A DNA stretch of 63,339 nucleotides from Gemmatimonadota bacterium (GCA_020350785.1 CP070722.1:4020692-4084030); one strand, 5' to 3'; shown: positions 44,390 through 62,563, counted from the first letter of the stretch. A program made the numbers and translations. Notes: generated by a model not told the origin, from the sequence alone.

Positions 44390-44529
44390 CCCCATCCTGC
44401 AGAGTGTCACAATCATCCAAGTATAGACGTCGTTCCAGTGGGGATGGCGATTGCGCTACGAGGGTTGGGCGCCTCGTGTTTGGAGGCCGCCGCGCTCTCT
44501 TTGGAAGTGGAAGCTGCAGTGGAGGAACC

Positions 44530-45777
44530 ATGAGAACAATAATCGCTTTGGGCACGACCTTATGGGTGGCAGCGCTGACGACGAGCTGCGGCAGTGACCC
44601 CGTTGGGCCCCAGGAGATCACCCAGCTGCCGCGCGACCTGGAAGTAGCGGAGGTCGAGCTCATCGCAGCGGACAACGCTTTCGGCTTGAAGCTCTTCCGC
44701 CAGATCCAGGCGGAGACCGCTGACGGCAACATCTTCGTCTCGCCGCTCAGCGTGGCCATGGCGTTGGGCATGACCTACAACGGCGCGGCGGGCTCGACGC
44801 TGTCGGCGATGCAAGAGACGCTGGAATTGCAGGGACTCACGCTGGAGCAGGTAAACCGGTCTTACCGTAGCCTTATCGATCTACTTGCCGGCTTGGACCC
44901 GTCCGTCGAGTTCATCCTGGCCAACTCGATCTGGTACCGCCAGGGCTTTCCGGTGGAGCAGAGCTTCCTCGACGTTAATCGGGAGTACTTCGATGCGGAG
45001 GTCGCGGCTCTCGACTTCGCCAGCCCGGGAGCGGCGACGACGATCAATGACTGGGTGGCAGAGAAGACCAACGGGCGGATCGACGAAATCGTGGACAGCC
45101 CCATCGATCCGATCCTCGTCATGTTTCTGATCAACGCCATCTACTTCAAGGGCGATTGGACCTATCAGTTCGACCGAGATCTTACCAGGGACGCGCCGTT
45201 TTTCCTGGAGAGTGGTAGCGAGAAGCTGGTTCCCACGATGGCTTACGGTGAACCAGTCGAGGTGGGCTACTACAAGGACTCGGAGATCGAGGCTGTGGAT
45301 CTGCCCTACGGTGGCAAGGCCTATAGTATGACGATCATGCTGCCGGTGGGTGAAGGTAATGTCGGTGCTCTGGTGGAGTCTCTCGATGGAGCCCGCTGGG
45401 CGCAAGTAGTGGGAGGCATGGCCGTACTGGAGGCCGAGGTGCGGATGCCGAAGTTCACCCTGGAGTACGAGCTGGAGCTTAACGATGCACTCAAGGCCCT
45501 GGGCATGGAGGTAGCCTTCGATCAAGGGGCGGCGGACTTCTCCAAGATCTATCCGGGCCCCGAGCGCCTGTTCATCAGCAAGGTCAAGCACAAGACTTTC
45601 GTCGACGTGAACGAGGAGGGTACCGAGGCTGCGGCGGTCACGTCGGTCGAGGTCGGGCTGACCTCCGCGCCCCCCGTCATCAGTGTCGACAGGCCGTTCG
45701 TCTTCGTGATACGCGAGAGGCTCTCCAGCACCATTCTGTTCATGGGCCTGATCACGGATCCGGCCGGCGCGGCTTGA
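44530..45777 (+). CDS. Serpin family lipoprotein
   Basis: GGAGG RBS; lipobox LTTS-C; NIFVSPLSV..AL, ANSIW, LINAIYFKG.W, LPY, MPKF, VDVNEEGTEAAAVT hinge, DRPFVFVI. Confidence 0.95.
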   Translation: MRTIIALGTTLWVAALTTSCGSDPVGPQEITQLPRDLEVAEVELIAADNAFGLKLFRQIQAETADGNIFVSPLSVAMALGMTYNGAAGSTLSAMQETLELQGLTLEQVNRSYRSLIDLLAGLDPSVEFILANSIWYRQGFPVEQSFLDVNREYFDAEVAALDFASPGAATTINDWVAEKTNGRIDEIVDSPIDPILVMFLINAIYFKGDWTYQFDRDLTRDAPFFLESGSEKLVPTMAYGEPVEVGYYKDSEIEAVDLPYGGKAYSMTIMLPVGEGNVGALVESLDGARWAQVVGGMAVLEAEVRMPKFTLEYELELNDALKALGMEVAFDQGAADFSKIYPGPERLFISKVKHKTFVDVNEEGTEAAAVTSVEVGLTSAPPVISVDRPFVFVIRERLSSTILFMGLITDPAGAA

Positions 45778-46335
45778 GAGGCCTTGCCAGTAACATTGGC
45801 CACCTTCCGCCTCTGTATGTCGGCGGCCGAGGGCCGGGTGCCGAGACCGGTCAGGCATCCGGCCTCGCTAGTGGCACCCTCGCGACGGTCAAGAGAGCGG
45901 CCGCCAGCGAAGCTCCATAACTCCAGCCATCCCCCAATCCAAGCCGTGAGCCGTTAGCGGCAATACCATCTCGCAAGCCCGAACCAGTCGAGCAGTGAAC
46001 TGGGCTGCAGTTCGCGGGATCGATCCGGGCGCCGTCCCAGGTGGTGCGGTGGCGGCGGCAGAGGAGGCGTGCAGGCACGAGCGTGGCGGCGATGCTGCAA
46101 CGCCCCCGGACGAGGCGTCGATAGTTGCGCAGCTGCAACATACCGGGTCGGGAATGGGCGGCGAAAGCTGTTGCTGGGCGGGACGGAGAGCCGAATCCAA
46201 TGTGGCGCTTGAGGATAGCCCGTGCGAGCCGGCAGGCGCACCCCTGACCCCGAACGTGTACGAACCTTGCGTCCCCGCGAGGCGCTGGAGCAGTGGAGGT
46301 GGATACTTGAACGGAATTGGCTGGGAGGAAGGCAA

Positions 46336-49300
46336 ATGCTAAGTGTTGCAAGGTCTCAGTGGCGTCGGATCCTCGCGGTCCTGGTCGTGGCCGCAGTCTT
46401 CAGCTGCGGCGATGATAGCGGTCCGACCGACCCGACGACCTCCGCCTCGAAGCTGGCGTTCGGGGTGCAGCCGCCGAATGGAACGGCGGGGGAGGAACTC
46501 GCGCCGGCGGTGACCGTGCTGATCCAGGACGACGACGGGAACACGATCAGCGACGCCACGAACGCCGTCACCGTCGCGCTCGACGCGAACCCGGGTTCGG
46601 GAACGTTGTCGGGAGCCAGGACGGTCAATGCGGTGAACGGCGTCGCGACATTCGGCGACCTCTCAATCGGTGAGGCGGCGAATGGCTACAGCCTTCGCGC
46701 CACTGCCAGCGGATTAGCCGCAGCGACGAGCAGCACCTTCAACATCCAGCCGGCGGCGGCAGCGAGGCTGGTGTTCACCGTTCAGCCGTCGGCGGCGACG
46801 ATTGGCGCTGCCATCGCGCCTGCCGTCGAAGTGTCGATCCAGGACGCTCTGGGGAACTTGGTGACGAGTGCCACCAACCAAGTGACGATCGCGCTGGGCG
46901 CGAATCCGGGCGGCGCCACTCTGTCTGGGGCCAGGACGGTCAACGCGGTCAGTGGCGTCGCGACGTTTGACGAGCTGAAGCTCGATCAGGTGGCAAACGG
47001 ATACACGCTGACGGCGACGGCCTCCGGCCTGACGGGGGCGACGAGCATCGCTTTCAATATCTTGAGCGGCCAGCTGGCGTTCTCGGTGCAGCCGAGCGAC
47101 GCTGCCGCGGGAGCCGCTATCTCGCCGGCAATCCAGGTCGAGGTGCGTGATCAGTCGGGCAACCTGATCTCGGGCGCGAGTAATTCGGTCACGGTCGCGA
47201 TCGGCGACAACCCGGGAGGCGGAACGTTGTCAGGTGCCGCGACCGTCAACGCGGTCAACGGCGTAGCCACGTTCAGCGACCTGTCGATCGAGAAGGCGGG
47301 TGTTGGTTACACGCTGACGGCCACCAGCGCGGATCTGGTGAGCGCGACGAGCGAGGCGTTTGACATCGGCGGGGGCGCGCCGTTCCGCCTCGCCTATCGG
47401 ATCGAGCCGAGCGACGCCGCGGCCGGCGCGGCTATCTCGCCGGCGATCGAGGTGGAGATCCGAGACGAGTTCGATAACCTGGTGGGTACGGCGACGGACG
47501 CGGTGACGCTTGCCATCGACTCGAATCCAAGTGGTGGCACGCTCACGGGTACGGAGACACAGAACGCGGTCAACGGCATAGCGACGTTCAGCGACCTGTC
47601 GATCGATAAGGCGGGCCCTGGCTATACACTCCTCGCAAGTGCCAGTGGGCTGAGCGACGCGACCAGCGCCGGGTTCGAGATCACCGCTGCGGAGCCGACT
47701 CAGCTTGGCTTTTCGATCCAGCCGAGCGATGCTGGCGCCGGTATCGTGATAGCGCCTGCGGTCGAGGTGGAGGTTCTGGATGGCTTCGGTAACCGGGTGA
47801 CGACGGCTACCGATGCGGTGACCGTCGCCATCGGCACCAACCCGGGCTCGGGCGCGTTGTCGGGCACGAAGACGGCCAACCCGGTCTTGGGCGTGGCCAC
47901 CTTCGATGACCTCTCTATCGACAAGGCGGGCGTCGGCTACACGCTGACGGCGAGTGCCAGTGGTCTGACGGGCGACACGAGCGATGCGTTCGAGATTACG
48001 GGCGGTGATGCAACCAGGCTCGTATTCATCGTGGACCCCAGCGATGCGACCGCCGGTGAGCTGATAGCGCCGGCTGTCCAAGTGCAGGTGCAGGATGGCT
48101 TTGGCAACCCGGTCGGCACGGCGACGAACTCGATCACGCTGGCCATCGGGACGAACCCGGGCGGCGGCAACCTGTCGGGCACGATCACGAAGAGCGCGTC
48201 GGGTGGCGTGGCGACGTTCAGTGACCTGTCGATCGAGAAGTCGGGCACTGGCTACACGCTGGTGGCGAGCGCGACCGATCTGACCGACGGGGAGAGCGCT
48301 GGCTTCGATATCAGCGCGGCGGACGCGACCAAGCTCGCCTTCACCGCGCAGCCAGGCGAGTCGGAGGTCAACCTACCGATCCAGCCGGATGTCGTGGTAC
48401 AGGTTCAGGATCAGTTCGGTAACGTTGTTCCGGGCTCGACCCACTTGATCACGATCAGCATTGGGACCAATCCAGGAGGGGGCACCCTTTCGGGCACGGA
48501 CATGGAGAACGCCGTGGGCGGTGTTGCCGCCTTCGACTCGCTCGTGATCGACAAGCGGGGCAACGGCTACACTTTGAGAGCGACGGCGGCCGGTATCTCC
48601 AGCGCCACGTCGGCGAGCTTCGACCTCGTCTTCTTCTGGAATATGGTGGAGGGGGGTAACGAGCATGCCTGCGGCCTGACCGAGGGCGGCGCTCTCTACT
48701 GCTGGGGTGACAACACCTTCGGCCAGCTGGGCGACGGCACGAATCTCGACAGCAACGTTCCGGTCCGTGTGGCGGGCGGCCTGCTGTTCACCCAGGTCGA
48801 TGCGGCCGAGACGCACACCTGTGCATTGACCGCTGACGGCGATTCCTACTGTTGGGGCGACAACACGCTGGGCCAGCTGGGTGACGGCACGAACACGGCC
48901 AGCAACGTACCGGTGCAGGTCGCGGGTGGCCGGACGTTCGCCTGGATCAACGCAGCGAACCACGGATTCCACACTTGTGGAGTGACCGTGAACAATGCTG
49001 CCTATTGCTGGGGCGATAACGACTTCGGCCAGCTGGGCGACAATTCCACGACGCCCGCGAATACGCCGCAGGCCGTCTCTGGTGGGATCTCGTTCGACAT
49101 GGTGAGCGGTGGCCTCGACCATACCTGCGGCGTGTCCAGCAACGGTACGGGGTACTGCTGGGGCCGCAACTCGGCGCGCCAGTTGGGCAACGGCACCAAC
49201 ACCGACAGCTCGGTGCCGGTGGAGATCTCCGGCGGCCTGGTGTTCGCCGAGATCTGGGCGGGCAGGTTCCATACGTGCAGCATGACGACCGGCAGCGAGG

Positions 49301-49692
49301 CCTACTGCTGGGGCACTAACGGCGACGGCCAGTTGGGCGATGGCACGAACCTGCAGAGCGGCGTGCCGGTATTGGTCGCCGACAGCCACGTCTGGGAGTC
49401 CACGGTGGTGGGGGCCAACCACAGCTGCGGATTGGAGACCGGTGGCGTGGGCTATTGCTGGGGAGACAACGGCGACGGGCGCTTGGGTAACGGTACGACC
49501 ACGAGCGCGAACATCCCGACGCTGATCTCTGGTGGACTACTGTTCTCGCAGATCATGGGCGGCCGGGCGCATACCTGTGGCGTGACGACCGTCGGTGATG
49601 CGTACTGCTGGGGTAGTAACGTGGACGGCCAGCTGGGTAACGGCACCAACTCCCGCAGCTTGACACCCAGCAAGGTGAACGACCCGTTCTAG
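46336..49692 (+). CDS. Surface lipoprotein with seven Ig-like repeats and a C-terminal RCC1/BLIP-II seven-bladed propeller
   Basis: Lipobox VFS-C; seven ~104-aa repeats (L.F..QP....G..I.P.V.V..QD..GN ... GVATF.DL.I...G.GYTL.A...); seven H.C......YCWG.N..GQLG.G repeats. Start ATG 46336. Confidence 0.9.
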   Translation: MLSVARSQWRRILAVLVVAAVFSCGDDSGPTDPTTSASKLAFGVQPPNGTAGEELAPAVTVLIQDDDGNTISDATNAVTVALDANPGSGTLSGARTVNAVNGVATFGDLSIGEAANGYSLRATASGLAAATSSTFNIQPAAAARLVFTVQPSAATIGAAIAPAVEVSIQDALGNLVTSATNQVTIALGANPGGATLSGARTVNAVSGVATFDELKLDQVANGYTLTATASGLTGATSIAFNILSGQLAFSVQPSDAAAGAAISPAIQVEVRDQSGNLISGASNSVTVAIGDNPGGGTLSGAATVNAVNGVATFSDLSIEKAGVGYTLTATSADLVSATSEAFDIGGGAPFRLAYRIEPSDAAAGAAISPAIEVEIRDEFDNLVGTATDAVTLAIDSNPSGGTLTGTETQNAVNGIATFSDLSIDKAGPGYTLLASASGLSDATSAGFEITAAEPTQLGFSIQPSDAGAGIVIAPAVEVEVLDGFGNRVTTATDAVTVAIGTNPGSGALSGTKTANPVLGVATFDDLSIDKAGVGYTLTASASGLTGDTSDAFEITGGDATRLVFIVDPSDATAGELIAPAVQVQVQDGFGNPVGTATNSITLAIGTNPGGGNLSGTITKSASGGVATFSDLSIEKSGTGYTLVASATDLTDGESAGFDISAADATKLAFTAQPGESEVNLPIQPDVVVQVQDQFGNVVPGSTHLITISIGTNPGGGTLSGTDMENAVGGVAAFDSLVIDKRGNGYTLRATAAGISSATSASFDLVFFWNMVEGGNEHACGLTEGGALYCWGDNTFGQLGDGTNLDSNVPVRVAGGLLFTQVDAAETHTCALTADGDSYCWGDNTLGQLGDGTNTASNVPVQVAGGRTFAWINAANHGFHTCGVTVNNAAYCWGDNDFGQLGDNSTTPANTPQAVSGGISFDMVSGGLDHTCGVSSNGTGYCWGRNSARQLGNGTNTDSSVPVEISGGLVFAEIWAGRFHTCSMTTGSEAYCWGTNGDGQLGDGTNLQSGVPVLVADSHVWESTVVGANHSCGLETGGVGYCWGDNGDGRLGNGTTTSANIPTLISGGLLFSQIMGGRAHTCGVTTVGDAYCWGSNVDGQLGNGTNSRSLTPSKVNDPF
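46450..48627 (+). repeat. Seven tandem ~310-nt Ig-like domain coding repeats
   Basis: Recurrent DNA such as gtcaacgcggtcaacggcgt..cgacgttcagcgacctgtcgatcga.aaggcggg. Confidence 0.85.
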
Positions 49693-49836: not shown

Positions 49837-52800
49837 TCAGGGTGTCCGAGCGACCCTCGCATTCAGCGCAGCGATGAACTTGGGGAGCGTCTTGAAGAGA
49901 TCGCCGACCACCGGGTAGACTTTGGGACGCTCGCGCCGCTGGTTCAACGTCATTAGCGGCGCCTGGGGGTCCATGTTGAAGGCGAAGATCACGGCGCGGT
50001 CGCCAACCCAGTCCAGGTGTTGAGGCGCGCCGGAGACGCCGAGCGCGATCATGACGCGCGGGTTCACTCGCACACCGGTCTGACCGATTTGATGCTCGTC
50101 GGGCAGCCAGCTCAGGTCCATCGTCACCTTGCGGGTGGCGCCGATCAAGACGTGCGGGGCGCCCAGCCGGATGAGCGTTTGGCGGAGGGGCTCGACCAAC
50201 GTCTCCAAGTTGTCGACCGAACCCAGACCCGCTCCCACATCGATGACGAACTCGGCATTCTGGAGGCTGACGACGCCAAGGGCCTCCTTGGCCTCAGCCA
50301 GCGCCCGGGCGATCCTGTCGCGCTCGGGGTCGTAGTCGAGTCTGAGCTGGATGGTGAGAACCTCGGCCTGCGCGGCCGCTAGCCTGCCGCTTTCGGCAGC
50401 ACTGACCTCCGGCTCACACCACAGAATACGCATACCGTTTCCGCGCGCTGGCCGGTGCCGCGTTGCCCGCAAGCGGCGCTCGTGTACCGGCCTGACAAAC
50501 GCGATGCCGTCCCCATCGCCGTAGTCCACACGGTTTACTCCGGGCACCTCCTCGGCGGACAAGCCCGCAGCGCGCAGCGCGTCCCCCAGAGCTGGCAAGG
50601 CATCGGCCAACCAAGCAGAGGTCAGCAGATAGTCGGGCCGCGTATGCGTGTCGGGCCCCAGGAGTTGGATCAGCGCCTCGGCGTATGCCGGCTGTGCGCT
50701 GCTTCCCAGGGCGGCATGCTCGGCGAAGACCAGTCGCGTCAGGGGCGCCAGAGCCAGGAGCTGCCCGGCGGCAGCTCGCCGCTGCGCATCGGATAGGGGC
50801 TGGCTGAGAACGAGAACGCTGAGCGGCGCATCGTTGTGGGCGGCGATAGACTCGGCCGCGGCCAGGGGCGCGCGGGCACTGCGAGCCAACTCCTCGTCCT
50901 CCAGCTCGGCGATGAATAGGACACCGCTCCAGTCCAGCGACTCGGCGGCGGCCTCTCGAATGCCGTCCCGATAGGGCGTCCCCGCAGTCGCCCTCGTGCC
51001 ATCGCCCAGATCGCCGACCTCGATGAGCACCGCGGCCGCCCGGTCACGGTCGACGCTGCCCGAGTCCTCGGCGCGCTCGATCCCGGCCGTGGCCGCCGCG
51101 CCTGCCAGCAACTCGTCCGACCGCTCGGCCTGCGCGGGGAAGGAGGCGACGTGGACAGGCTGTTCCAGGGCACGGTTGAACCCGAGTGTGTCGAAGTCCC
51201 AGTTCGAGTGTGCTCCAGTGCCGGACACGGCTCCCACACAAGGGAGGTCCAGGCGAATGATGTCGGGGAAGCGGTCGCTGGCGCAGGTGAGTGCGCCGCC
51301 CCCCACCCAAAGATCGGTGACCCCCGGTGCCCGCTGAAGGGCGAGCAGGTCGGCGAGCCGCAGGCCGAGGCGGCCTTCGCTGGGGCCATCTTCAGAAGCG
51401 CTGGCGAGCAGCAGATGCAACTCGATGCCGCGAGCGCGAAGCAGATCCACGATCGCTGCGGCCGCCGCCTGCTCCGAGTAGGATTCGCCGCCGGTGTCGA
51501 GCAGGATGGCTTCGTCCGCGCCTGCGGCCAGTGCAAAACGCAGCGAGTCCTCGGCGACCAATGGCGCTGCACAGACCAGGGTCACACGCACGCGTTCCGG
51601 CGCCGCTCGCTTCAGCTCGAGCGCCAATTTCAGGGCACGCCGATCGCCGGCGCTGAACTTAAAGACGTGTTCGACCAGGCGCCCGGCTTCGAGGCGCGGC
51701 CGCGGGGCCAGCGCGGGCGTCAATTCTGGAACGAGTACGATCTTGAGGTCCTGATCAATGGCGTCGCGAGGGACAGCGTCAGTCGTGGTCGGGGCGCTGG
51801 GAGCCGCGTCGGACTCGTCGAAGACGGTCTCGGCCAGGCGCAGCTCTGCCGTTCGACCGCAGGTTGTCAACGTCTCGACGTCGCGGTCGAAGGATCGCAC
51901 CAGACGCGAGAACTCACGACGCGCATGTGAAACGAATCCGCGTGCCGCGCCGTCACACCACGCCCGCCGTACGGCGTCTCCCTCAGCGGTCAAGTTTCCA
52001 GAGATCCAATCAGCGCGGCGGATAACGGTGTCCACGGCCTTGATCACGGCCACCATCCGCGACAGTCGGAAGAAGATCGGCTGTAGCAGCGCGCGCTGCC
52101 AGGCGGCACTCTTGTAGCGGCCGCGTGTGAGCTTCACGCGTTCGTGCAGAGCACTCAACATCTCATTGAATATTTCGATCTCACTCTTGTAAGGAGAATC
52201 GCTGACCACCGGGGCAAGGCCTTCGAGCTTCTCTATCGCCGGCCCGATCATATCGACCAGGTCCTTGAGAAGCAGGAACTGCTGGATCTCGTTCGTGCCC
52301 TCGTAGATGGTCATCACGCGCGCGTCGCGGCGGTCCTTCTCGATGCGGTACCTCTGCAGCTGGCCCTGAATACCGTAGAGCGGCTCCAGGTAGTGCAGAT
52401 TACGGTGCAGGCCATCGGTGCCGAACAGCTTGCCGACCGACGATTCGATGCGAGGCATGTCGCTCGTCTTGTCGTCGTAGAGGCCGATCAAGTCGTACGC
52501 CAATGACTCGATGACGAACATCTCCTCGAGGGCGAGGCCGAGGCGGTAGCGAGCCCAGCCCTGTGATTTACGCGGAAGATCCGCCAGGTATGCGGTGACG
52601 TCACCGATGGCCTGCTGAATGCTTGCAGCGGATGAGATACAGAGGCCGGTTCTCCCGACATTGAGAGTTTCGAGAGCGTTCTCTTGGCCGCGTCCCTCGA
52701 TCCCGATCACGCACTCTCGCGGGATGCGGACGTTCGTCAGAGTGATCTCGTTGGTGCAGGAGCCGCGCTGCCCTGTCTTCTCCTCGTCCTTGCCGACGAG

Positions 52801-55800
52801 GAATCCTTCGGTGAGGGCGTCGACCATGAATCCGGTCACGCCTACGGGAGTACGCGCGTAGATCGCCTCCACGGCGGCGATGTGGGCATTGGTGATCCAC
52901 ATCTTGGCACCGTTGAGCACGTAGAACTCGTAGTACTCGGCGCCGTCGCGTTCGCGGATCAGGGCCATGTCGTGGATATCGATGCGCCGGTCGCCGATCG
53001 TGAAATAGCGGTACTTTTCCTCGCCTTCGTCGTAGCTGAACTCCAGCGATTGGACCTCGGCGGGCTCGGCAGCATCGCTGTATCGGTAGAGTATCTTCGA
53101 GCGGTCGAACTCGAAGCGCTGCAACTCGGCGATGTTGCGGCGGCCTTCCTCCGCTTCTTCGTCGAGATAGAAGTACTTCACACCGTCGGCATCGGTGTGC
53201 ACGCGCCGCGAGTCGAGATGGGCATCCGTGCGTATGCGTGCCGTGTCGGATCCGGCGCTGGGCTCGGTGAGGGCGAAGGCCGAAATCGCGCGCGCCGAGA
53301 TGAGGCGAAGGTAGAACTCGTGAGCCAGCCGGCGGCGCGGCATCTCGGCGAGCTCGGCGGAGGCACGCTCCTGCCAGCCCTCGAGGGCGGCCAGCGCCTT
53401 CTCCAGGCCCTTTGCGAAGCCGTGGAGGTCGCCCTTCAAACCGGCCATCCCACCCTTCTGCCACGACGACAAGAACTTGCTGAAGACGACCTTCTTGAGG
53501 ATGCGGCTTCTGCTTAGCTTGCCGCGGACCTCTTTGTCCAGGGCGATGTAGGCCTGCTTCAGCTGCTCGAAGTCGGGCCGTTTCATCATCGCCAGGATCC
53601 TCCGGATACCGTCGGCGATTTCCTGAACGGCCGCCGGTTGGTCGACCGCCGCCTGCAAGTCGCGCTCGGCCACCTTGACCTCGTCGAGGCCGAGCAGCAT
53701 CGGGGTAGTACCGATGCTGTATGATGCCTGGATGGTCAGGGTGTTGCTAATGTCTGCTAGGCGCTTGGCTACCATGCAGAGGTTATAGTAATCGGCCTTC
53801 CAGCGGCCCTGGCCCCCGTATTCCTGCGGAATAGGCACGCGGAAGTGGCCCTGCTCCAGGCTCCAGTCGATCTCCTCGCGCGGGATGTAATGGAGCCGCT
53901 CGACGTAGCGCTCGAAGGATGGCTGCCATGCAGCTTCGACGTAGCGGCGACGAAAGAGCTGTAGGTACTCCTCGTATTGAGAGCGCAGCGATGTGTCGGC
54001 CCAGAGCAGCTCGGGCAGGTAGCGCCTCTCCTCCAGATTTAGCGGCTCGAGCAAGAACGCACCGGAACGATATCCGCGCTGGCCCCCCACGATGTCGCGC
54101 TGGTAGTCGAAATCCAAATCGTCGGTCGCGACGGGCGTGTCGGGGTAACCGTCGAGTTGGAAAGCCAGGCCGCCCAGCTCCACGCGGCCGGCCACCGCAG
54201 CCAGCTCATCATCGAGATCGACCAGGCGCTCTTCGACGAGATCGGCCCAGAGTTGCGCCGCTTCGACATGGCGCTGGGCCGGGAGCGCGCCCTCCAGGCG
54301 GCGATGGGCACGGACCAGAAGGCGAGCCCAGATGTACAGGCTCGTGGCCACTTCGCCGACGATGTCGTGCACGGCCTGGCGAGCGCTAGGGACGTCGGCT
54401 TGCTCCAAGGCCTGGCGCAGCGCGCGGCTGAGCTCCGTCTCGGCTGCTCGAATTCGCCGCGCCTCGAAGTCGAGTATCGGTTTGCGCTCCATAACGTCGA
54501 GGGCGGCGGGGATGTCGCTCGCGATGGTCCCCAGCAGCGGGCCTGCACCGGCCGAGAGGCATTCGCCGATCTCGATCTGTAAGAGGGGGTTCTCTCGGAT
54601 ATAGTGCGGGAGTACCGAGCTGTCGCGATAGATCTTTGAGAAGACGTCGTCTTCCGAGAACGCGGTGCCTCCGATGACCTGACCGGCACGGTAGGTGATG
54701 CTCGGCATATCGGGGCCGAAGATGGTCGTGACGGCCACCTTGCCCAGCAGCATTTCTAGAACTGGGTCGAGATCGGCCCAGGGCGTATCCAACAGGAGAG
54801 TCTCCAAAGCCAGGCGGCCGGCCTCGATGTGGGCGATGTGAGCGCGCACCGCACCGAACTTGCCGATCGCGTCACGGCCATCGACGTCCTGGAACATGTC
54901 GGGGAACTGGATCCTGCCACGGGCATGATCCACCGTGCGCTCGGAAAGCAATGAACCGGCGCCGTATGCGATTGATGCCACGTCGCGCGCGCGTAGACCG
55001 AACAGGGCCGCTTCGTCGGACGGCGACCAGTCCGCTTCCCACACCGGACGAGCACTTGCGAGGGTGACGCATCCGATTGCCGCACCCGTCAGGCCGATTG
55101 CGGGTGTCTGTTCGGTCGTTACGGCGGTGTCACCAAACTCGAATAGGGCGACGCGACCGCCGCCCCGCGCCACGATGCTCTCGGCGACTGCCAGCGGCAC
55201 AAAGGGAAGCTCGCCCTGCCAACCGTCAACCCCGGGCTCCGCTTCAACTTCGAACGCGACGGCCGTGAGCCGATCGCCGCTGCGGAGGGTTCTTAGGAGA
55301 TGATCGGGTGCGCCGCCGCGTTCAAGGGCTTCCACGCCGGCCAGGTGAGCGGCGACGATCGTAGCCATCGAGGAGTCAACCCGCGCCAGCTCGGCCAGCA
55401 CATCCTGGCGCGCCACGAACTGCCAACGAGCCGCCGCTTCGTGCTCGATGGCGCCGAGACCCAAGCGGGCGATGAAGCGCAGCAGTTCGATCTCTGCCTG
55501 CTCGAGAGTTCCACCGTGCTCGAGTCGACGTACGGCCAGGCGATCGAATCCGGCGGCCAGCCGCTCGCGCAGGGCTTGGCGTCCCGCTTCGCGCTCGGCT
55601 GAGGGGACCTCTAAAGAACGCAGCTCGGTTACGGGGTCCGGGTATTCTTCCGGGATCAGGCAGGCTCCGGCGATGCGTTCGATGCATGTTTTCATGCCCC
55701 GGAGATGGTGATCGCGTATTTGACGCGCGTCGGCGACTGCCGCGAAGAACCGATTCGCGCTGGCGTGCTGGCGCACGTTCGCCGTTGCCGCCTCGAGATC

Positions 55801-58305
55801 TCGCTTCAGCTGGAGCAGCTCCACGTGGGCCGCGTTCATTTCGCGGTCGACGAGCCAAACTTCTATGGGTTCGGCGAGGGCGGCGGCGGCGGCCTCCTCG
55901 GCAAGATCTGCGAAGTATTCGATCGCGCCGCGATACCAGTTAACCTGGCCGGCTTCCAGTACGCGCGCCCCATTCCAGACATTGTCGTGCAGCTCCCAGC
56001 ACTTCGCCTCCACCGTCCGAATAGCCCTTCGTGCGTCGCTGATGGCGTCGACCATCATCGCGGCGGCCGGCTCGACCCGCTCGCCTGTGCAGATATCTGC
56101 CATGGCGACATGCCAGTAGCTCTCCGCGATGCCGGGGACCGCTTTAAGTTTTCTTTCGGAGAGGACCCGGCGTAGCGCTCCGTCCGCCTCGGTATACACC
56201 TCGTAGGTCAAACGATGTTTGCCGAATCGCGTCCAATCCACATGCTGCGGCTCGATGCGCCAGCACGTCTCGCACTTCACGCAGTTCTCGAAGTTCACCG
56301 TCACGGAGGCGTGCAGTGTGCGATCGACGTTGATCTGATAGACCGCCGCCGGGCACACGGTCCAGAGTGCCGAGCGGCTTGGATCCTCAAGCTTCCCGGG
56401 CTCCTCAGGAGGGAAGAACACTTTGATGTGCGAGCCGTGCTCGCCTTCGTAGCTTATCTCGCCGAGCTTAGCGTCGTGCGTCTTGGCGATGGGGAGGCGA
56501 CCGGGCGTCATATCGGTGTGGGCGCGCCAGGCGGTCATCCAGCCGCCGTAGAACGTGGCCTCCTTCGCCGCAGGGACGAGCTTGCTTCGGCGGTGTCGTA
56601 TGACTTGGCTGAGGTTCTGGGCGGCGCGGGTCAGCGGAAGCCCGATCGCGCCCACGGCCGCGCCGAGTAGCTCCCAAAGCGAGAGGCGCCGCATGACGAT
56701 TCCCACGCAGCGATCCAGCTTCTGGGCGATCGGGACGCCGTCGTTGGAGTATAGTACGCCGGCAGCCCTGGAGAGCGCCGGCGTGAGGCGGGCGCCCAGC
56801 CAGCGCTTGTACCACGGCAGTTGCCCGGTCTTTTCGTCCTTGACCCAGAGGCTGAAGGTCAGATGGCCGTCAGCGCGGCCCCAGGCGAACGGTAGGAGTG
56901 CGAGCAACGTGTTGGGGATCGAGAGCAGCATTGCCAGCGGGGCGTGCTTCAGGACGAAGCGGCCCAGGTGCAGGGCTTTGGCGCCGCGGTTGAGGTCGCG
57001 ATAAGTGGCGAGCCAGTTACCCCTAAGCGTCTCGTAGAGCATGCGGGTGAGTTCCCACCACTTACGTGGGAGATTGAGCTGTGGACGGGTCAGGGTGTAA
57101 AGGGATCCGTTCAAGACGTCGATCTGTCGTCCGAAGAGGGCCTCGCTGTGCTCGATGAAGGCGGGCCAGTCTTGCAGGTGCTCGACGTCCTTGAAGTAGT
57201 TGCTGGACTTGACGCGATCGACGTACAACTGTTCTAGGCGCTCTCTGGATGGAGGCTGGTCGGCGGCGTGCAACTCGATGACGGCCTCGGCAAAGAGCTT
57301 GCCCATGGCGCAGGCCGGCCCTGTAAAATTGGGGTAGGGGAAGTCCACGCCGATGCCGGTGGCCGCGCCGCCGACGGCCACGCCGTCGTCCACCAACTCG
57401 GGCAACTCCTTGATGCCGCCGCCGCGAATGATTTTTGCTCCGTACGATGTGGACTCCCCGCCCTCGATGAGACGCTTAATCGGCGGCAGCCCCTTGTACC
57501 ACTCCATCAAGCTGTTGTAGTCGCCACCGAAGTGAGCGAGGTTGTCGAGGGGTAGGACGAGGCCCAATGAGATGCTGGAGCGGTTGGTGTAGATGAAGCC
57601 GGCCATATTGAGGCGAACCGTCTTGCCATCCAGAGCGCCGTTCCGCAGAAGAACTTCGTAACAGGCGCCCTCATCATTGCGGAGGTCGAAGCGTTCCTCG
57701 ATGATGCGCGGGTCGAGCTGGATGACCTCCTTTACCCCTTGAAGAAAGGCAGGCTGCCCGCTCTGCTTGGAGCGAACGTAATCGCGCTCGAACCCCTCCT
57801 TGCTGACGAGATGCGCGGCATCGCCCTCGGCGAGGAACACGACATCGCTGTAGAGGGGTCCGCGGTCCGTGTTCACCCCGATCACGCGGCCGGCGCGGCG
57901 GATCAGCCCGTCGACGGTGGTTTCGGTGAGCAAGGTGACACCGAGTTGGCGGGCGCGTTCGGCCAGGTAGCGGTCGTAGACGGGGCGCAGTACGGTGTAG
58001 CAGTGGCGGAAAGCCTCGGGATTGCGGTATACGGCGCCGGCGAGCGTGAGTCCGTTGGTGGCGAAGAAGCCGCGCTTGACGACGCGTCGCTCGTACGGCG
58101 CCGCCAGCAACTCGGCTTCGCCGAATACGTTGGGATCAGCCAGCCCCTCGGCGAAATACACGGCGCCCGACCAGTTCTCGGCACCCGGGTAGACGGCGGC
58201 CTCTACGACCAGGACGTCCAGCTTCTGACGTGCGGCCCGCAGCGCAGCGGTGACGCCGGCGGGTCCGCCCCCGACGACGATGATATCCCACAGCTTCTTG
58301 CCCAT
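49837..58305 (-). CDS. 2822-aa fusion: FixC/ETF-QO-like flavoprotein + [4Fe-4S] ferredoxin + degenerate acyl-CoA dehydrogenase + acyl-CoA dehydrogenase + EtfB + EtfA
   Basis: IIVVGGGPAG and FLAEG (FixC); CPAAVY..CVKCETC (C651, C675/678/681); R.QF and Q..GG (ACAD1); AFALTEPSAGSD, LNGAKMWITN, IYEGTNEIQ (ACAD2); DRRALKLAL, ALAAGAD (EtfB); GATR..W....QIGQTG..V.P....LGVSGAPQH (EtfA). Confidence 0.9.
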   Translation of the reverse strand: MGKKLWDIIVVGGGPAGVTAALRAARQKLDVLVVEAAVYPGAENWSGAVYFAEGLADPNVFGEAELLAAPYERRVVKRGFFATNGLTLAGAVYRNPEAFRHCYTVLRPVYDRYLAERARQLGVTLLTETTVDGLIRRAGRVIGVNTDRGPLYSDVVFLAEGDAAHLVSKEGFERDYVRSKQSGQPAFLQGVKEVIQLDPRIIEERFDLRNDEGACYEVLLRNGALDGKTVRLNMAGFIYTNRSSISLGLVLPLDNLAHFGGDYNSLMEWYKGLPPIKRLIEGGESTSYGAKIIRGGGIKELPELVDDGVAVGGAATGIGVDFPYPNFTGPACAMGKLFAEAVIELHAADQPPSRERLEQLYVDRVKSSNYFKDVEHLQDWPAFIEHSEALFGRQIDVLNGSLYTLTRPQLNLPRKWWELTRMLYETLRGNWLATYRDLNRGAKALHLGRFVLKHAPLAMLLSIPNTLLALLPFAWGRADGHLTFSLWVKDEKTGQLPWYKRWLGARLTPALSRAAGVLYSNDGVPIAQKLDRCVGIVMRRLSLWELLGAAVGAIGLPLTRAAQNLSQVIRHRRSKLVPAAKEATFYGGWMTAWRAHTDMTPGRLPIAKTHDAKLGEISYEGEHGSHIKVFFPPEEPGKLEDPSRSALWTVCPAAVYQINVDRTLHASVTVNFENCVKCETCWRIEPQHVDWTRFGKHRLTYEVYTEADGALRRVLSERKLKAVPGIAESYWHVAMADICTGERVEPAAAMMVDAISDARRAIRTVEAKCWELHDNVWNGARVLEAGQVNWYRGAIEYFADLAEEAAAAALAEPIEVWLVDREMNAAHVELLQLKRDLEAATANVRQHASANRFFAAVADARQIRDHHLRGMKTCIERIAGACLIPEEYPDPVTELRSLEVPSAEREAGRQALRERLAAGFDRLAVRRLEHGGTLEQAEIELLRFIARLGLGAIEHEAAARWQFVARQDVLAELARVDSSMATIVAAHLAGVEALERGGAPDHLLRTLRSGDRLTAVAFEVEAEPGVDGWQGELPFVPLAVAESIVARGGGRVALFEFGDTAVTTEQTPAIGLTGAAIGCVTLASARPVWEADWSPSDEAALFGLRARDVASIAYGAGSLLSERTVDHARGRIQFPDMFQDVDGRDAIGKFGAVRAHIAHIEAGRLALETLLLDTPWADLDPVLEMLLGKVAVTTIFGPDMPSITYRAGQVIGGTAFSEDDVFSKIYRDSSVLPHYIRENPLLQIEIGECLSAGAGPLLGTIASDIPAALDVMERKPILDFEARRIRAAETELSRALRQALEQADVPSARQAVHDIVGEVATSLYIWARLLVRAHRRLEGALPAQRHVEAAQLWADLVEERLVDLDDELAAVAGRVELGGLAFQLDGYPDTPVATDDLDFDYQRDIVGGQRGYRSGAFLLEPLNLEERRYLPELLWADTSLRSQYEEYLQLFRRRYVEAAWQPSFERYVERLHYIPREEIDWSLEQGHFRVPIPQEYGGQGRWKADYYNLCMVAKRLADISNTLTIQASYSIGTTPMLLGLDEVKVAERDLQAAVDQPAAVQEIADGIRRILAMMKRPDFEQLKQAYIALDKEVRGKLSRSRILKKVVFSKFLSSWQKGGMAGLKGDLHGFAKGLEKALAALEGWQERASAELAEMPRRRLAHEFYLRLISARAISAFALTEPSAGSDTARIRTDAHLDSRRVHTDADGVKYFYLDEEAEEGRRNIAELQRFEFDRSKILYRYSDAAEPAEVQSLEFSYDEGEEKYRYFTIGDRRIDIHDMALIRERDGAEYYEFYVLNGAKMWITNAHIAAVEAIYARTPVGVTGFMVDALTEGFLVGKDEEKTGQRGSCTNEITLTNVRIPRECVIGIEGRGQENALETLNVGRTGLCISSAASIQQAIGDVTAYLADLPRKSQGWARYRLGLALEEMFVIESLAYDLIGLYDDKTSDMPRIESSVGKLFGTDGLHRNLHYLEPLYGIQGQLQRYRIEKDRRDARVMTIYEGTNEIQQFLLLKDLVDMIGPAIEKLEGLAPVVSDSPYKSEIEIFNEMLSALHERVKLTRGRYKSAAWQRALLQPIFFRLSRMVAVIKAVDTVIRRADWISGNLTAEGDAVRRAWCDGAARGFVSHARREFSRLVRSFDRDVETLTTCGRTAELRLAETVFDESDAAPSAPTTTDAVPRDAIDQDLKIVLVPELTPALAPRPRLEAGRLVEHVFKFSAGDRRALKLALELKRAAPERVRVTLVCAAPLVAEDSLRFALAAGADEAILLDTGGESYSEQAAAAAIVDLLRARGIELHLLLASASEDGPSEGRLGLRLADLLALQRAPGVTDLWVGGGALTCASDRFPDIIRLDLPCVGAVSGTGAHSNWDFDTLGFNRALEQPVHVASFPAQAERSDELLAGAAATAGIERAEDSGSVDRDRAAAVLIEVGDLGDGTRATAGTPYRDGIREAAAESLDWSGVLFIAELEDEELARSARAPLAAAESIAAHNDAPLSVLVLSQPLSDAQRRAAAGQLLALAPLTRLVFAEHAALGSSAQPAYAEALIQLLGPDTHTRPDYLLTSAWLADALPALGDALRAAGLSAEEVPGVNRVDYGDGDGIAFVRPVHERRLRATRHRPARGNGMRILWCEPEVSAAESGRLAAAQAEVLTIQLRLDYDPERDRIARALAEAKEALGVVSLQNAEFVIDVGAGLGSVDNLETLVEPLRQTLIRLGAPHVLIGATRKVTMDLSWLPDEHQIGQTGVRVNPRVMIALGVSGAPQHLDWVGDRAVIFAFNMDPQAPLMTLNQRRERPKVYPVVGDLFKTLPKFIAALNARVARTP

Positions 58306-58495: not shown

Positions 58496-59005
58496 TTATC
58501 GTGGCCGAGTCGCGGCCGAGCCTGCCGGTACCGGCTCGCGGATCAGTGAGTCGCTAACTTTGCCGAGCTCCCGAGCGATGTCGAGGGCGGAATCAGCGAC
58601 TTGATTGTGGAGGGCGACGATATCACGACAGGCTTGCCAGTGAGACCTCAAGGTGTCGCCTGCCGCAGCCCGGGCCGGAATTCCACGGTTGTAAGCCCGA
58701 AAGGCTTGCAGGTAGGAGTCGTAGCTCTCGGCCGGCACTCCGGCTGGATCGAGACCTTCGTAGTGCTCGATGAGGTTACGGAGCGAGTCGAACCGGGCAT
58801 CGCTGGCGCGCAGCTGTTCCTCCTCCAGTTCCAGGGCCGCGAGACAGGAGTCGGCGGCGGTGCGCAGGTTTGAGAGTTCCTCGCGCAGGAGGCGGAGGCG
58901 TTGAGCAGGTGGAACAGGCGTCAGCAGGTCGATCGTGACGATAGCGACGAACACGACCACGGAGATCGTGAGCATCACGACAAACGGTCTTGAGGGTGCT
59001 GGCAT
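58496..59005 (-). CDS. Hypothetical protein with N-terminal TM anchor and coiled coil
   Basis: FVVMLTISVVVFVAIVTIDLL TM followed by heptad-rich LRLLREELSNLR..LELEEEQL; start ATG 59005. Confidence 0.6.
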   Translation of the reverse strand: MPAPSRPFVVMLTISVVVFVAIVTIDLLTPVPPAQRLRLLREELSNLRTAADSCLAALELEEEQLRASDARFDSLRNLIEHYEGLDPAGVPAESYDSYLQAFRAYNRGIPARAAAGDTLRSHWQACRDIVALHNQVADSALDIARELGKVSDSLIREPVPAGSAATRPR

Positions 59006-59119
59006 ATTGGTCTTTGATAGTTTCCAACTGGACTTCCGGTTGCACAAATAGCGCCGGGCTTCGGCTCATGCGCAACCCCGGGCGGAGAACTGCGAGCGGG
59101 CGGCCAGAGGAGGCGGGAT

Positions 59120-59821
59120 TTGAGTAAGGTGGTGACGAGGGAACTCGAGGAACTGCAGTCACGAATCGTGCGCTGCCGGCGCTGCGCGCGCCTGGTGTCC
59201 TGGCGTGAGGAGGTGGCGCGGCAGAAGCGTGCCGCGTTCGCAGATTGGGAGTACTGGGGCCGACCGGTGCCGGGGTTCGGTGATCCGGTGGCTTGGCTGC
59301 TGATCGTGGGGCTGGCTCCCGCCGCGCACGGCGCCAATCGCACCGGCCGCATGTTCACGGGCGACCGTTCCGGTGATTTCCTCTACGCCGCGTTGCATCG
59401 GGCCGGCCTGGCGAGCCAGGCCGAGTCGAAGAGCCGCGACGATGGTCTCGAGTTGAGTGGCGTCTATATCACCGCGACCTTGCGCTGCGCTCCGCCCGCC
59501 AATCGGCCTGCGGCGCAAGAGCGCGACAACTGTCGAGACTTCTTGGAGCGCGAGCTCGACCTTCTGGGCGGAACGAGGGTAATACTCGCTCTGGGCGGTT
59601 ACGCGTTTGATCAAGTCCTGCGCGTGCTCCGAGGGCGCGGCAGCGAGTTGCCGTCGCCGCTGCCCGGGTTCGCCCACGGCCGCACGGTCGAAGTGGGCCC
59701 GGTCGGCCCGTTGATCATCGCCAGCTACCATCCAAGCCAACAGAACACGTTCACGGGCAAGCTAACGCCACGAATGCTCGACGAGGTCTTGGTAAGAGCG
59801 AAAGCAGCGGCGGAAGGATGA
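59120..59821 (+). CDS. udgB: Uracil-DNA glycosylase family 5 (UdgB-like, Fe-S)
   Basis: CRRCARL, GLAPAAHGANRTGRMFTGD.SG, CAPPAN, NC, SYHPSQQNT; GGAGG before the TTG start. Confidence 0.92.
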   Translation: MSKVVTRELEELQSRIVRCRRCARLVSWREEVARQKRAAFADWEYWGRPVPGFGDPVAWLLIVGLAPAAHGANRTGRMFTGDRSGDFLYAALHRAGLASQAESKSRDDGLELSGVYITATLRCAPPANRPAAQERDNCRDFLERELDLLGGTRVILALGGYAFDQVLRVLRGRGSELPSPLPGFAHGRTVEVGPVGPLIIASYHPSQQNTFTGKLTPRMLDEVLVRAKAAAEG

Positions 59822-60043
59822 GCGACGGGGCTCGTGGGTCGGATCGAGCCACAAAATCGGCGCTGAACGTGAGAGGCCCCGGCGGCGTATCAAGAAGAGA
59901 TGTCGTTGCGGCCCGGTTTGCCCGAGCGTGCGCGGAAACGTAGTGGGCAGCGATATTCAGGCAGGGCTCCGCGAGGTCGCGCGACCCGGAGCTGGCTGTC
60001 AGACCTAGGCGTTCGGGCTCTTAATCGAGATGGCAATGGAGAA

Positions 60044-62563
60044 ATGAGCAGCGAAGAGAGGGTTCAGGAAGACAAGTCCGGTCGCAAGGTACCGCGCTGG
60101 ATTCTGTTCGTGGCCGGTGTTTTTGCGGTACTCGTACTCGCTGGATTCGCGGCGGCGAAGTTGCTTTTTCCGCCTGAGAGGCTGCGAGCGATGGTCGTGC
60201 CGCGCATCGAGGCGCGCATAGGGCGGCAGGTCGAGCTATCGGCGATCCGGCTACGCTTGTTGCCTCGCGTCGCCGTCCGCCTGGAAGATCTGGCGATCGC
60301 CAGCCCACCCGAGTTCGGGCCGGAGCCGGCGCTGCGTATGGAGGCGCTGGACCTGCAGTTGAGAGTGCTTCCCTACCTGCTCCGCCGCGAGGTAGTGCTT
60401 GACCGGCTGCGAGTGCGGCGCCCGGAGATCCGCTACGTAGTGCTCTCCGACGGTCTCAGCAATTTCACGGGCCTGGGCCCGGCGGCGGCGGAGTCGGCGG
60501 AGGCGGAGGGCGGAGCGTCTGGCGCGGGTCTGGTGGTCAGTGACCTCAGGCTGGAAGAGGGAACGATCGAGTATCTCGATCAGCGGACGGGCCGCTCGGC
60601 GCGCCTGAATGTCGATGCACGAGTCTCGGCGGATCGTGATCCGGCCGAGCCGCGGGGGTTGCGGAGCCGTGGCGCGATCGAACTGAGCTCACTGCGCGCT
60701 TTGGCCCCCAATTTCGGATCGGACACGCTCCATCTGCCTGATTTGGAGATCACGTATGGCCTGCTGGCAGATCTTGCCGGGGATAGTGCCGCGCTTCAGG
60801 AGCTCGAAGTGCTTGCCGGTGGGCTGCCGCTGAGAGGTGGCGGTGCACTGAGAGGTCTGCGTGGCGACAGGGAGATCGATTTCAGGATGGAATCGGGAGA
60901 GGTCGATATCGCGAGAATCTTGGGGAGCCTTCCGCCGACGCTCAGACGCGAGGATCTGCAAGCTTCGGGTCTGGCGCGGGTGTCGGTCCGTGTCTTCGGT
61001 CGGCTGGCCGGGGGTGCGAAGCCGGAGGTCGACGGGACGATCGATCTGCAGGAAGTCGCGGCCGGCCTGGCGGATCGCGGGACTATTCTGACGAACGGTT
61101 CAGGAACCATAGGATTTGACGCGGGCGCACTGTCTTTGCCGAGTTTCAAGGGTGATCTACTGGGCCGCCCTTTCACGCTACGCATGGACGTGTCCAATTT
61201 TTCGGCCCCCAAGGTCGAGGGACACGTAACCGGAGGGGTGGCGCTGGCGCAGCTGGCGGAGCTACGCGGGCAGGCCATGCCGGCTGAAGGTGACATCACC
61301 TTCGACGTCGACTTCGCCGGACCGGTTCGCGAGCCGAGCGCTCTGCGCGTGACGGGTCCCATAGGGCTGCGCGAGGTGCAGTACCGGACCGAGGCGCTGG
61401 CCGTACCCGCTCGCATCCCGGCGGCGACCGTGCGCCTGACGGGGACGGGTATCGCTGCCGAGGGCATGGCGATCCAGCTCGGCCGCAGCGATCTCACGCT
61501 GACGTTCAACGGCCCAGGCCTGCTGGCCTATGCGTTGAGCGATGAGCAGGTCGGCAGCGTACCGGCCATCGAGTTCTCGATGCGATCGCGGCTCCTTGAT
61601 GCCGGCGAGCTGCTTTCCGACACGGCTGTGGGTTACGGAGCCCTGTTCGCGGCGCGCCTCGCGGGCAAGCGGATCGACGGAAGAGATCCCCGTGAAATAG
61701 CCCGCGAGCGCTACAAGGTGCCGGACCTCACCAGACTGCGTGCCAGCGGTCACATCGAGATCGCCGAGCTGCTGAACCCGCCTACGCGCGGTGAGAACCT
61801 CAGCCTTGACCTCGAGCTAGCCGGCGGCGTGCTGGAGGCGAAGAACCTGGCCGGGCGCCTCTATGACGGCGAGTTGGGCGGCGGTCTGAGCATCGACCTG
61901 AGCGACGCGGCGGGACCGTACCCGGCGCGCTACGACATCCGGCTGAGCGGCGCGCGGGCCGGCGCCTTCCTGGAGCGCTGGACGCGGTTGGGACAGGCCG
62001 TGACCGGGCAGCTGGATCTCTTGATCAGGGGCAGCGCGCCCCTGGAGGAAGGACTGCTTCCGACGGCTGAGGCGATCGAGGCAGCTGGGAGGGCGACGGT
62101 GAGCGAGGGGCGTCTCGGGGAGCTGCCTCTGGCTCGGATGTTGATCGACAAACTCAAGTTCGATGCGCAGACTTTGTCTGACTTTACGCAGCTGGGTGGC
62201 GGTTTCACGATCGAGAATGGTGCGTTCGTGCTGGATGATTGGGGATACGCGGCTGAGGACCTCAGCGCGACGATCACGGGATCCGCGGGGTTGGACGGTC
62301 GGCTGAGCCTGGGTCTGAACATGGAGGTACCTCCATCGTTGCTCCAGAGAGCGGGTCTAGTGGAGAGCGGCGGGCCCCTCGGCGATGCTTTGCGAGCGCT
62401 GGTGGGTGAGGACCAGGCGTTTCAACTTGCCGTTGGTGTCGGCGGCACCATGGCGAACCCGGCGGTTCAGGTCGACACCGAGGCGCTCCAATCCGAGCTG
62501 GAGAGACGGCTGCAGGGGGAAGGCAAAGATCTGCTGCGGCGTTTAATCAAGCCTCCCAAGTAG
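60044..62563 (+). CDS. AsmA-like family protein
   Basis: N-terminal TM then IE..IGRQV....I.LRLLP.V.V.LEDLAI; repeated beta-taco segments; C-terminal LSATITGSAGLDG.L.L. Start ATG 60044. Confidence 0.85.
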   Translation: MSSEERVQEDKSGRKVPRWILFVAGVFAVLVLAGFAAAKLLFPPERLRAMVVPRIEARIGRQVELSAIRLRLLPRVAVRLEDLAIASPPEFGPEPALRMEALDLQLRVLPYLLRREVVLDRLRVRRPEIRYVVLSDGLSNFTGLGPAAAESAEAEGGASGAGLVVSDLRLEEGTIEYLDQRTGRSARLNVDARVSADRDPAEPRGLRSRGAIELSSLRALAPNFGSDTLHLPDLEITYGLLADLAGDSAALQELEVLAGGLPLRGGGALRGLRGDREIDFRMESGEVDIARILGSLPPTLRREDLQASGLARVSVRVFGRLAGGAKPEVDGTIDLQEVAAGLADRGTILTNGSGTIGFDAGALSLPSFKGDLLGRPFTLRMDVSNFSAPKVEGHVTGGVALAQLAELRGQAMPAEGDITFDVDFAGPVREPSALRVTGPIGLREVQYRTEALAVPARIPAATVRLTGTGIAAEGMAIQLGRSDLTLTFNGPGLLAYALSDEQVGSVPAIEFSMRSRLLDAGELLSDTAVGYGALFAARLAGKRIDGRDPREIARERYKVPDLTRLRASGHIEIAELLNPPTRGENLSLDLELAGGVLEAKNLAGRLYDGELGGGLSIDLSDAAGPYPARYDIRLSGARAGAFLERWTRLGQAVTGQLDLLIRGSAPLEEGLLPTAEAIEAAGRATVSEGRLGELPLARMLIDKLKFDAQTLSDFTQLGGGFTIENGAFVLDDWGYAAEDLSATITGSAGLDGRLSLGLNMEVPPSLLQRAGLVESGGPLGDALRALVGEDQAFQLAVGVGGTMANPAVQVDTEALQSELERRLQGEGKDLLRRLIKPPK

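Follow-up and report, generated by a model that had tools for sequence, protein, structure and literature searches.

The DNA considered here is a stretch of 63,339 nucleotides from a Gemmatimonadota bacterium (GCA_020350785.1, CP070722.1:4020692-4084030), the whole of which is referred to as the window. It contains an uninterrupted open reading frame (ORF) on the minus strand, 49837-58305, that encodes a protein of 2822 amino acids (aa) with the domain order FixC-FixX-ACAD1-ACAD2-EtfB-EtfA. Pfam and NCBIfam place a FixC-like flavoprotein at aa 1-390, a ferredoxin of the FixX/ETF-QO type at aa ~649-691 and the flavin adenine dinucleotide (FAD) domain of the alpha subunit of electron transfer flavoprotein (ETF) at aa 2681-2764. 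The EtfB-like part was revealed by searches of the PDB, where the EtfA part was matched best by Etf subunits from the complexes of Bcd and of CarC. The region flagged by the original prediction, 51900-55610, corresponds to aa 899-2136 of this ORF and contains two acyl-CoA dehydrogenase (ACAD) units, termed ACAD1 and ACAD2, which are the subject of this analysis.

49837..58305, minus strand: the whole ORF, made up of a FixC-like flavoprotein, a FixX-like ferredoxin, ACAD1, ACAD2, an EtfB-like part and EtfA (Pfam, NCBIfam and PDB searches)

ACADs are textbook homo-oligomers. In an ordinary ACAD, as is seen in MCAD-type structures, the ADP-ribose moiety of the FAD bound by one subunit is held by the R.QF and Q..GG motifs of the other. 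It had been proposed for the present ORF that the two units show complementary degeneration, ACAD1 keeping the motifs that are donated to a partner and ACAD2 those that form a subunit's own active site. All of the motif strings on which this proposal was built, including the predicted catalytic residue E2002, were found at their expected places within the one minus-strand ORF. The features of ACAD1 and of the segments that follow it are listed below.

54586..55605, minus strand: ACAD1 core (aa 901-1240), a catalytically dead ACAD fold with an N alpha-domain (aa 901-1010), a beta-domain (aa 1011-1095) and a C alpha-domain (aa 1096-1240) (family profile, PF00441, AlphaFold (AF2), Foldseek)
55228..55260, minus strand: VAFEVEAEPGV (aa 1016-1026), degenerate counterpart of the TEP..GSD flavin loop, shortened by a deletion (alignments)
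55189..55206, minus strand: PFVPLA (aa 1034-1039), degenerate counterpart of K.WITN (alignments)
54904..54924, minus strand: ARGRIQF (aa 1128-1134), retained R.QF donor motif with R1131, Q1133 and F1134 invariant in 111 homologues (sequence, alignment)
54847..54906, minus strand: FPDMFQDVDGRDAIGKFGAV (aa 1134-1153), a family-specific conserved loop that adds ~9 residues after R.QF (alignments, models)
54667..54687, minus strand: AGQVIGG (aa 1207-1213), retained Q..GG donor motif with G1208, Q1209, G1212 and G1213 invariant (sequence, alignment)
54586..54606, minus strand: HYIRENP (aa 1234-1240), counterpart of the YEGTNE catalytic loop, with I1236 at the position of the catalytic Glu (alignments)
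54157..54585, minus strand: helical extension after ACAD1 (aa 1241-1383), which resembles the C-terminal domain of VLCAD-type ACADs (profile on 2z1q, Foldseek, secondary structure of the model)
53986..54156, minus strand: mostly non-helical linker between the ACAD units (aa 1384-1440), modelled as coil with dips in pLDDT to 66-73

ACAD1 is a true ACAD fold and a pseudo-enzyme member of the family. The copy encoded here matches nothing significantly in Pfam or NCBIfam, and a single-sequence search of the PDB returned E values of 0.06-0.2 only; these weak alignments were colinear and exclusively to ACADs, with R.QF and Q..GG in register and I1236 at the position of the catalytic Glu. Significant PDB matches required a profile built from 18 family members, which found 2dvl (E 3.4e-10), 2z1q (2.7e-9) and VLCAD (1e-7), covered the N-, beta- and C-domains, and on 2z1q aligned with residues 172-501, including the VLCAD-type C-terminal helical domain. 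PF00441 was matched individually by 14 of the 18 homologues, although not by this copy. The AlphaFold model of ACAD1 (pLDDT 91.3, pTM 0.92) shows helices, strands and helices in that order, and all of the top 50 matches that Foldseek returned for it were ACADs, the highest coverage of ACAD1 with its extension being given by VLCAD-type chains (TMq 0.69-0.75; 0.71-0.75 for 3owa, VLCAD and ACAD9).

Within this fold the register of the motifs was checked against canonical ACADs of the host genome, four of which were placed in a joint alignment, and against ACADs of the PDB. The alignments agree with the proposal that ACAD1 has lost TEP..GSD, K.WITN and the catalytic Glu but has kept R.QF and Q..GG: the first two sites read VAFEVEAEPGV and PFVPLA, and the place of the Glu is taken by I1236. 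In none of the 111 homologues is this last position a Glu; it is occupied by L, I, G or V instead. The retained AGQVIGG is followed in the same homologues by an invariant S1217-E-D-D..K.YRD.

ACAD2 carries the following features.

52216..53985, minus strand: ACAD2 (aa 1441-2030), the catalytic ACAD (Pfam N, M and C domains; PDB matches)
53341..53685, minus strand: insert 1 (aa ~1541-1655), helical, ~115 aa, within the N-domain and conserved in the family (alignments, model)
53245..53274, minus strand: ALTEPSAGSD (aa 1678-1687), intact flavin-binding loop with T1680, E1681, P1682, A1684, G1685, S1686 and D1687 invariant or nearly so (sequence, alignment)
52942..53208, minus strand: insert 2 (aa ~1700-1788), beta-rich, ~90 aa, before the beta-domain and conserved in the family (alignments, model)
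52888..52914, minus strand: NGAKMWITN (aa 1798-1806), intact flavin-contact strand with K1801, W1803, T1805 and N1806 invariant or nearly so (sequence, alignment)
52558..52578, minus strand: LPRKSQG (aa 1910-1916), degenerate, shortened and hypervariable counterpart of R.QFG (alignments)
52372..52389, minus strand: LEPLYG (aa 1973-1978), degenerate counterpart of Q..GG in which the first Gly is lost (alignments)
52282..52305, minus strand: YEGTNEIQ (aa 2001-2008), catalytic loop, with E2002 as the predicted catalytic base, present in 111/111 homologues (sequence, alignment)
51766..52215, minus strand: helical extension that follows ACAD2 (aa 2031-2180) and bears a weak resemblance to the one behind ACAD1 (hhalign, 103 columns, E 1e-3; helices in the model)

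Assignment of ACAD2 to the family was straightforward, with PF02771, PF02770 and PF00441 all matched above their cut-offs (N-domain at aa 1453-1536, middle domain at 1785-1859, C-domain at 1871-2009) and with PDB matches to CarC (4.9e-33) and Bcd (2.6e-31) and also to ACAD9 and VLCAD; its three-domain ACAD fold was confirmed by Foldseek. The motif pattern is the mirror image of that in ACAD1, as had been predicted: TEP..GSD, K.WITN and YEGT are present but R.QF and Q..GG are not, and this holds throughout the family. The R.QF site reads DLPRK--SQG, with a deletion, and aligns opposite ERKQFGK of CarC and Bcd, and the Q..GG site reads E..YG opposite their Q.HGG. Inserts 1 and 2 have no counterpart in the canonical ACADs that were aligned; they may serve for docking of the fused ETF or FixC parts, or may form a lid over the substrate site.

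The fusion has at least 507 relatives, and each of the 119 that were retrieved carries both ACAD segments in the same order. Conservation was computed on 111 full-length homologues, which come from at least four phyla and share 31-45% identity in ACAD1. In ACAD1, 30 of 440 columns are at least 98% conserved, and these include all six donor positions (R1131, Q1133, F1134, Q1209, G1212 and G1213; hypergeometric P = 6e-8). Only one of the six equivalent positions is conserved in ACAD2 (P = 0.65), where the stretch equivalent to R.QF is hypervariable and gapped. The elements of ACAD2's own site, TEP.AGSD, K.WITN and YEGTNE, are conserved to at least 98%. The complementary split of the motifs between ACAD1 and ACAD2 thus holds in all 111 full-length homologues, beyond what chance would give.

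Members of the family fall into length classes that differ in how much of ACAD1 they retain. In the long class (median 2850 aa) ACAD1 is complete, with N-, beta- and C-domains of ~100, ~103 and ~139 aa. In a class of ~2480 aa, whose NCBI-named members are Verrucomicrobiae, the same domains measure ~69, ~38 and ~132 aa, the donor motifs are kept and the helical extension is lost. In a class of ~2300 aa the ACAD1 of the query is matched over a stretch of ~120-150 aa only; here R.QF and GQ.FGG are confined to the pseudo-ACAD, and TEP, WITN and YEGT to ACAD2. In about half of the family the beta-domain of ACAD1 is nearly deleted. The part of ACAD1 that is under selection is therefore the C-terminal helical domain with its donor motifs.

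These classes bear on whether ACAD1 might have a cryptic active site of its own, binding FAD in a non-canonical manner and drawing its catalytic base from elsewhere in the fold, as IVD and LCAD do. The three-domain fold of the long class would accommodate such a site, but the TEP loop is deleted, WITN is replaced and the MCAD-type base position is I, L, G or V. A catalytic Glu elsewhere in ACAD1 was among the findings that were to count against complementary degeneration. No conserved Glu was found at the IVD/LCAD-type position in three aligned family members: in the joint alignment the present protein has R1105 there, and the other two homologues have A or S. ACAD2, moreover, lacks the donor motifs that a partner of ACAD1 would have to supply. 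Because the N- and beta-domains are trimmed in the shorter classes, an ACAD1 active site is excluded for much of the family, and overall we consider a cryptic site to be extremely improbable.

Three shorter proteins stand apart from these classes. Variants of 1400-1700 aa without ACAD2 were considered as potential products of split genes. Among them, P0227, P0232 and P0211 (1670-1713 aa) contain FixC and FixX, match the C-domain of ACAD1 over a short stretch, lack a recognizable catalytic ACAD and, in one case, have an ETF domain near the end. Either their gene calls are truncated or they represent a relative of the fusion that has no ACAD and a different architecture.

It could also be asked whether ACAD1 is mainly a scaffold, that is, a docking platform for the fused ETF and FixC parts in which R.QF and GQ..GG serve the stability of the fold or bind another ligand, with the FAD contacts of ACAD2 coming from elsewhere, for example from a second ACAD2. 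ETF docks on ACAD surfaces, as in the MCAD:ETF complexes, and the conserved extra loop at aa 1134-1153 of ACAD1, which matches no known ACAD element, would fit such a role. Set against this, ACAD2 is devoid of the donor motifs, so that an ACAD2:ACAD2 dimer cannot complete an FAD site, and the six donor positions are all among the invariant residues of ACAD1 (P 6e-8). The short classes, furthermore, lose the N- and beta-domains and spare the C-domain. A role of ACAD1 as scaffold in place of FAD donor is accordingly regarded as very unlikely, if not to the same degree as a cryptic site.

How the two halves are arranged was approached with an AlphaFold model of the tandem (aa 900-2090, 1191 residues, from an alignment of 54 rows), which reached a pLDDT of 89.3 and a pTM of 0.89. 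Foldseek searches with this model returned only ACADs, with VLCAD, ACAD9, 3owa and 2z1q in the lead. The pTM indicates that the mutual position of ACAD1 and ACAD2 is confidently fixed, and this is of importance for the choice of partner, since the same motif split could also be satisfied between chains: ACAD1 of one polypeptide would complete ACAD2 of a second in a head-to-tail homodimer with two active sites. Complementary motifs are silent on which chain the partner belongs to; ACADs are always oligomers, those of the VLCAD type are dimers, and both halves have VLCAD-like helical extensions. AlphaFold, however, confidently joins the two halves of one chain, which are connected by a linker of ~57 residues that is mostly coil, and an architecture of 1:1:1 with one ETF and one FixCX requires no dimer. 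Pairing between chains is thus the less favoured arrangement and seems unlikely, although it deserves more weight than either a scaffold or a cryptic site.

Taken together, the evidence points to a pseudo-heterodimer, in which ACAD1 and ACAD2 probably mimic an ordinary ACAD dimer with a single working half and with one FAD and one active site per pair. TEP.AGSD, K.WITN and YEGTNE.Q of ACAD2 would hold the isoalloxazine end of the single FAD, and acyl-CoA would be bound by ACAD2 with E2002 acting as the catalytic base. The C-terminal helical domain of ACAD1 would pack on ACAD2 and donate R1131, Q1133, F1134, Q1209, G1212 and G1213 to the ADP-ribose end of the same FAD. The reciprocal site would be dead on both sides, as it would need ACAD1's own loops and donor motifs from ACAD2. 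Each chain would thereby have one ACAD site, in a ratio of 1:1 with one fused ETF and one fused FixCX module, and by homology electrons may be passed from the ETF FAD to the FixX cluster, on to the FixC FAD and then to quinone. 

The prediction of one FAD and one active site per chain is borne out in part, its core being well backed by the comparative evidence. The conserved split of the motifs, the trimmed ACAD1 classes, the ACAD fold of ACAD1, the modelling of the tandem as a single body and the precedent of known enzymes all speak for it; the geometry of the interface, the choice of a partner within the chain, the FAD stoichiometry and the path of the electrons are what we infer from these. 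Several points weigh against it. The degenerate Q..GG site of ACAD2 still conserves E1974 (110/111) and G1978 (105/111). Compared directly by their profiles, ACAD1 and ACAD2 show little similarity (hhalign E 0.01, probability 4%), and we do not claim that either half is the nearest relative of the other. The canonical interface and the contact of the donor residues with ACAD2-bound FAD are presumed from the logic of the motifs, the donor role itself being carried over from general knowledge of MCAD-type structures. Finally, known ACADs have nothing that corresponds to the loop FPDMFQDVDGRDAIGKFGAV, whose residues F1138, D1140, K1149, F1150 and G1151 do not vary, and in both models confidence is lowest here (pLDDT ~48-61). 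Folding of the loop may depend on a ligand or a partner domain, and since it is conserved and unmatched, ACAD1 may do more than clamp FAD.

The precedent comes from steroid catabolism. The proposed parallel in principle with the alpha2beta2 ChsE enzymes is upheld by the literature: in the steroid ACADs ChsE4-ChsE5, ChsE1-ChsE2, IpdE1-IpdE2 and Tcur3481-Tcur3483 each alpha-beta pair has a single FAD and a single active site (PMC11153573; PMC8399759), and the alpha subunit of ChsE enzymes carries the Glu and binds the isoalloxazine and the substrate whilst the beta subunit holds the ADP-ribose (PMC11153573). A fused form is known in CasC of Rhodococcus jostii RHA1, which has two ACAD domains, a catalytic Glu in the C-terminal one only and an N-terminal domain that is needed for FAD binding (PMC8399759). 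As in ChsE and CasC, ACAD2 has the Glu and the isoalloxazine motifs and ACAD1 only the ADP-ribose contacts, and with CasC the fusion shares the single polypeptide, the two ACAD domains, their order and their logic. The ChsE, IpdE and Tcur enzymes differ in that they are encoded by separate genes, form heterotetramers and belong to steroid pathways, whereas here there is one chain. CasC is a stand-alone enzyme of a bile-acid catabolic cluster; the tandem described here is embedded between FixCX and EtfBA and has no catabolic neighbours, each of its halves is followed by an additional helical extension, and ACAD2 is interrupted by two large inserts.

In structure, the tandem model is matched best by dimeric ACADs of the VLCAD/ACAD9 type (3b96, 2uxw, 8phe, 3owa and 2z1q), which likewise have a C-terminal helical domain behind the ACAD core. 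They are homodimers with two equivalent FAD sites, unlike the two diverged halves of one chain found here, whose sequence permits one complete site per pair. CarC and Bcd, from the CarCDE (6fah) and Bcd-EtfAB (5ol2) complexes, are the best sequence matches of ACAD2, as their Etf partners are of EtfA; both form homo-oligomers of the usual kind, every subunit having a complete FAD site, and are separate polypeptides, unlike the fusion. The caiA and fixABCX operons of E. coli, and likewise ydiO with ydiQRST, encode the same parts (ACAD, EtfB/A-like, FixC and FixX) as separate proteins, with ACADs that are again homo-oligomers of this kind.

The sequence and structure searches gave no sign of descent from steroid ACADs, both halves looking VLCAD-like. 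ChsE and Tcur chains were absent from the best 60 PDB sequence matches listed for either half, and in Foldseek the Tcur3481-3483 chains scored against ACAD1 no better than generic ACADs. Genes for steroid, bile-acid or beta-oxidation functions were found neither around the fusion gene in the window nor at three homologous loci, and the gene context gave no clue to the substrate at any of these four. The suggestion that the pocket is enlarged to take acyl-CoAs of a steroid, isoprenoid or branched nature accordingly found no support, there being no steroid or beta-oxidation context and no specific sequence relationship to steroid ACADs. As to where the pair came from, it may have arisen independently of the steroid enzymes, by internal duplication of a VLCAD-like dimeric ACAD within the fusion family, after which lineages trimmed the dead half down to an 'FAD clamp' consisting of the C-domain only; we put this forward tentatively, as a scenario with somewhat less than an even chance of being right. 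In this scenario a dead second half would be what it cost to fit a lone ACAD site into a self-sufficient single-chain acyl-CoA:quinone oxidoreductase (1:1:1), because the FAD site of an ACAD spans two subunits. The helical extensions after ACAD1 and ACAD2 are weakly alike (hhalign E 1e-3), and the weak likeness of these VLCAD-like extensions fits the duplication of a VLCAD-like unit without proving it.

The ACAD1-type domain occurs almost only in this fusion family and at a constant position. Among 1.84 billion representatives it was found in 88 clusters at E <= 1e-30, nearly all of the full-length ones having the domain at residues ~850-1350, and 95 coding stretches for it were found in 185,579 species genomes. 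The 80 loci that were kept all lie in metagenome-assembled genomes, none in a cultured strain, and most are labelled Gemmatimonadota, Acidobacteriota, Planctomycetota (Gemmatales) or Verrucomicrobiota. In the phylum of the host the fusion is present in two of 121 sampled genomes, a patchy occurrence that is compatible with horizontal transfer.

The one-site split is itself a known principle, from the ChsE alpha2beta2 enzymes and CasC; what is new is its occurrence in an undescribed and unrelated fusion family, and a literature search found no paper on an ACAD-ETF-FixCX fusion. To our knowledge, the only one-site ACADs recognized hitherto are the steroid-specific ChsE, IpdE and CasC. Finding the same split in an unrelated setting suggests that asymmetry of this kind recurs as a solution to one structural constraint, namely an FAD site that lies across two subunits. 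The graded trimming of the dead half amounts to a natural deletion series that points to the indispensable part of a partner subunit, and this could be of use for engineering monomeric or single-chain ACADs. Reading the tandem as a pseudo-heterodimer also sets the cofactor count to be expected of the megaprotein.

The next-best matches of the ACAD1 profile after the fusion family were stand-alone ACAD-like proteins of 340-375 aa (P0237, P0242, P0243, P0245-P0247, P0250 and P0255), in which R.QFG and Q..GG are retained but the catalytic Glu and the TEP..GSD loop are missing. These proteins, among which P0242 closely resembles Bcd (3e-77), may be orphan 'beta-type' pseudo-ACADs. The idea that they are split beta subunits led nowhere, as one is Bcd-like and, at the one locus examined, a Myxococcales stand-alone copy (L001, 6001-7056) has no adjoining ACAD gene. 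A further protein, P0248 (1727 aa), has two ACAD units within a multi-domain architecture of another kind, matching the C-terminal domain of ACAD9/ACADV and the C-alpha1 domain of ACOX, in which no YEGT was found; it is possibly another kind of tandem ACAD.

In the window, the 8.5-kb fusion gene (49837-58305) is isolated among unrelated genes, its neighbours lying at 44254-49692 and 58496-62563 and encoding an RCC1-repeat protein, a serpin, a member of the uracil-DNA glycosylase (UDG) family and an AsmA-like protein. The host genome additionally encodes five ordinary ACADs and a separate EtfA. Outside the window, at C1:3517318-3517767, it has an otherwise canonical ACAD gene (~419 aa) with a single in-frame TGA (...AAHLL*IAEG...), which could mark a pseudogene or stem from a sequencing error or from recoding.

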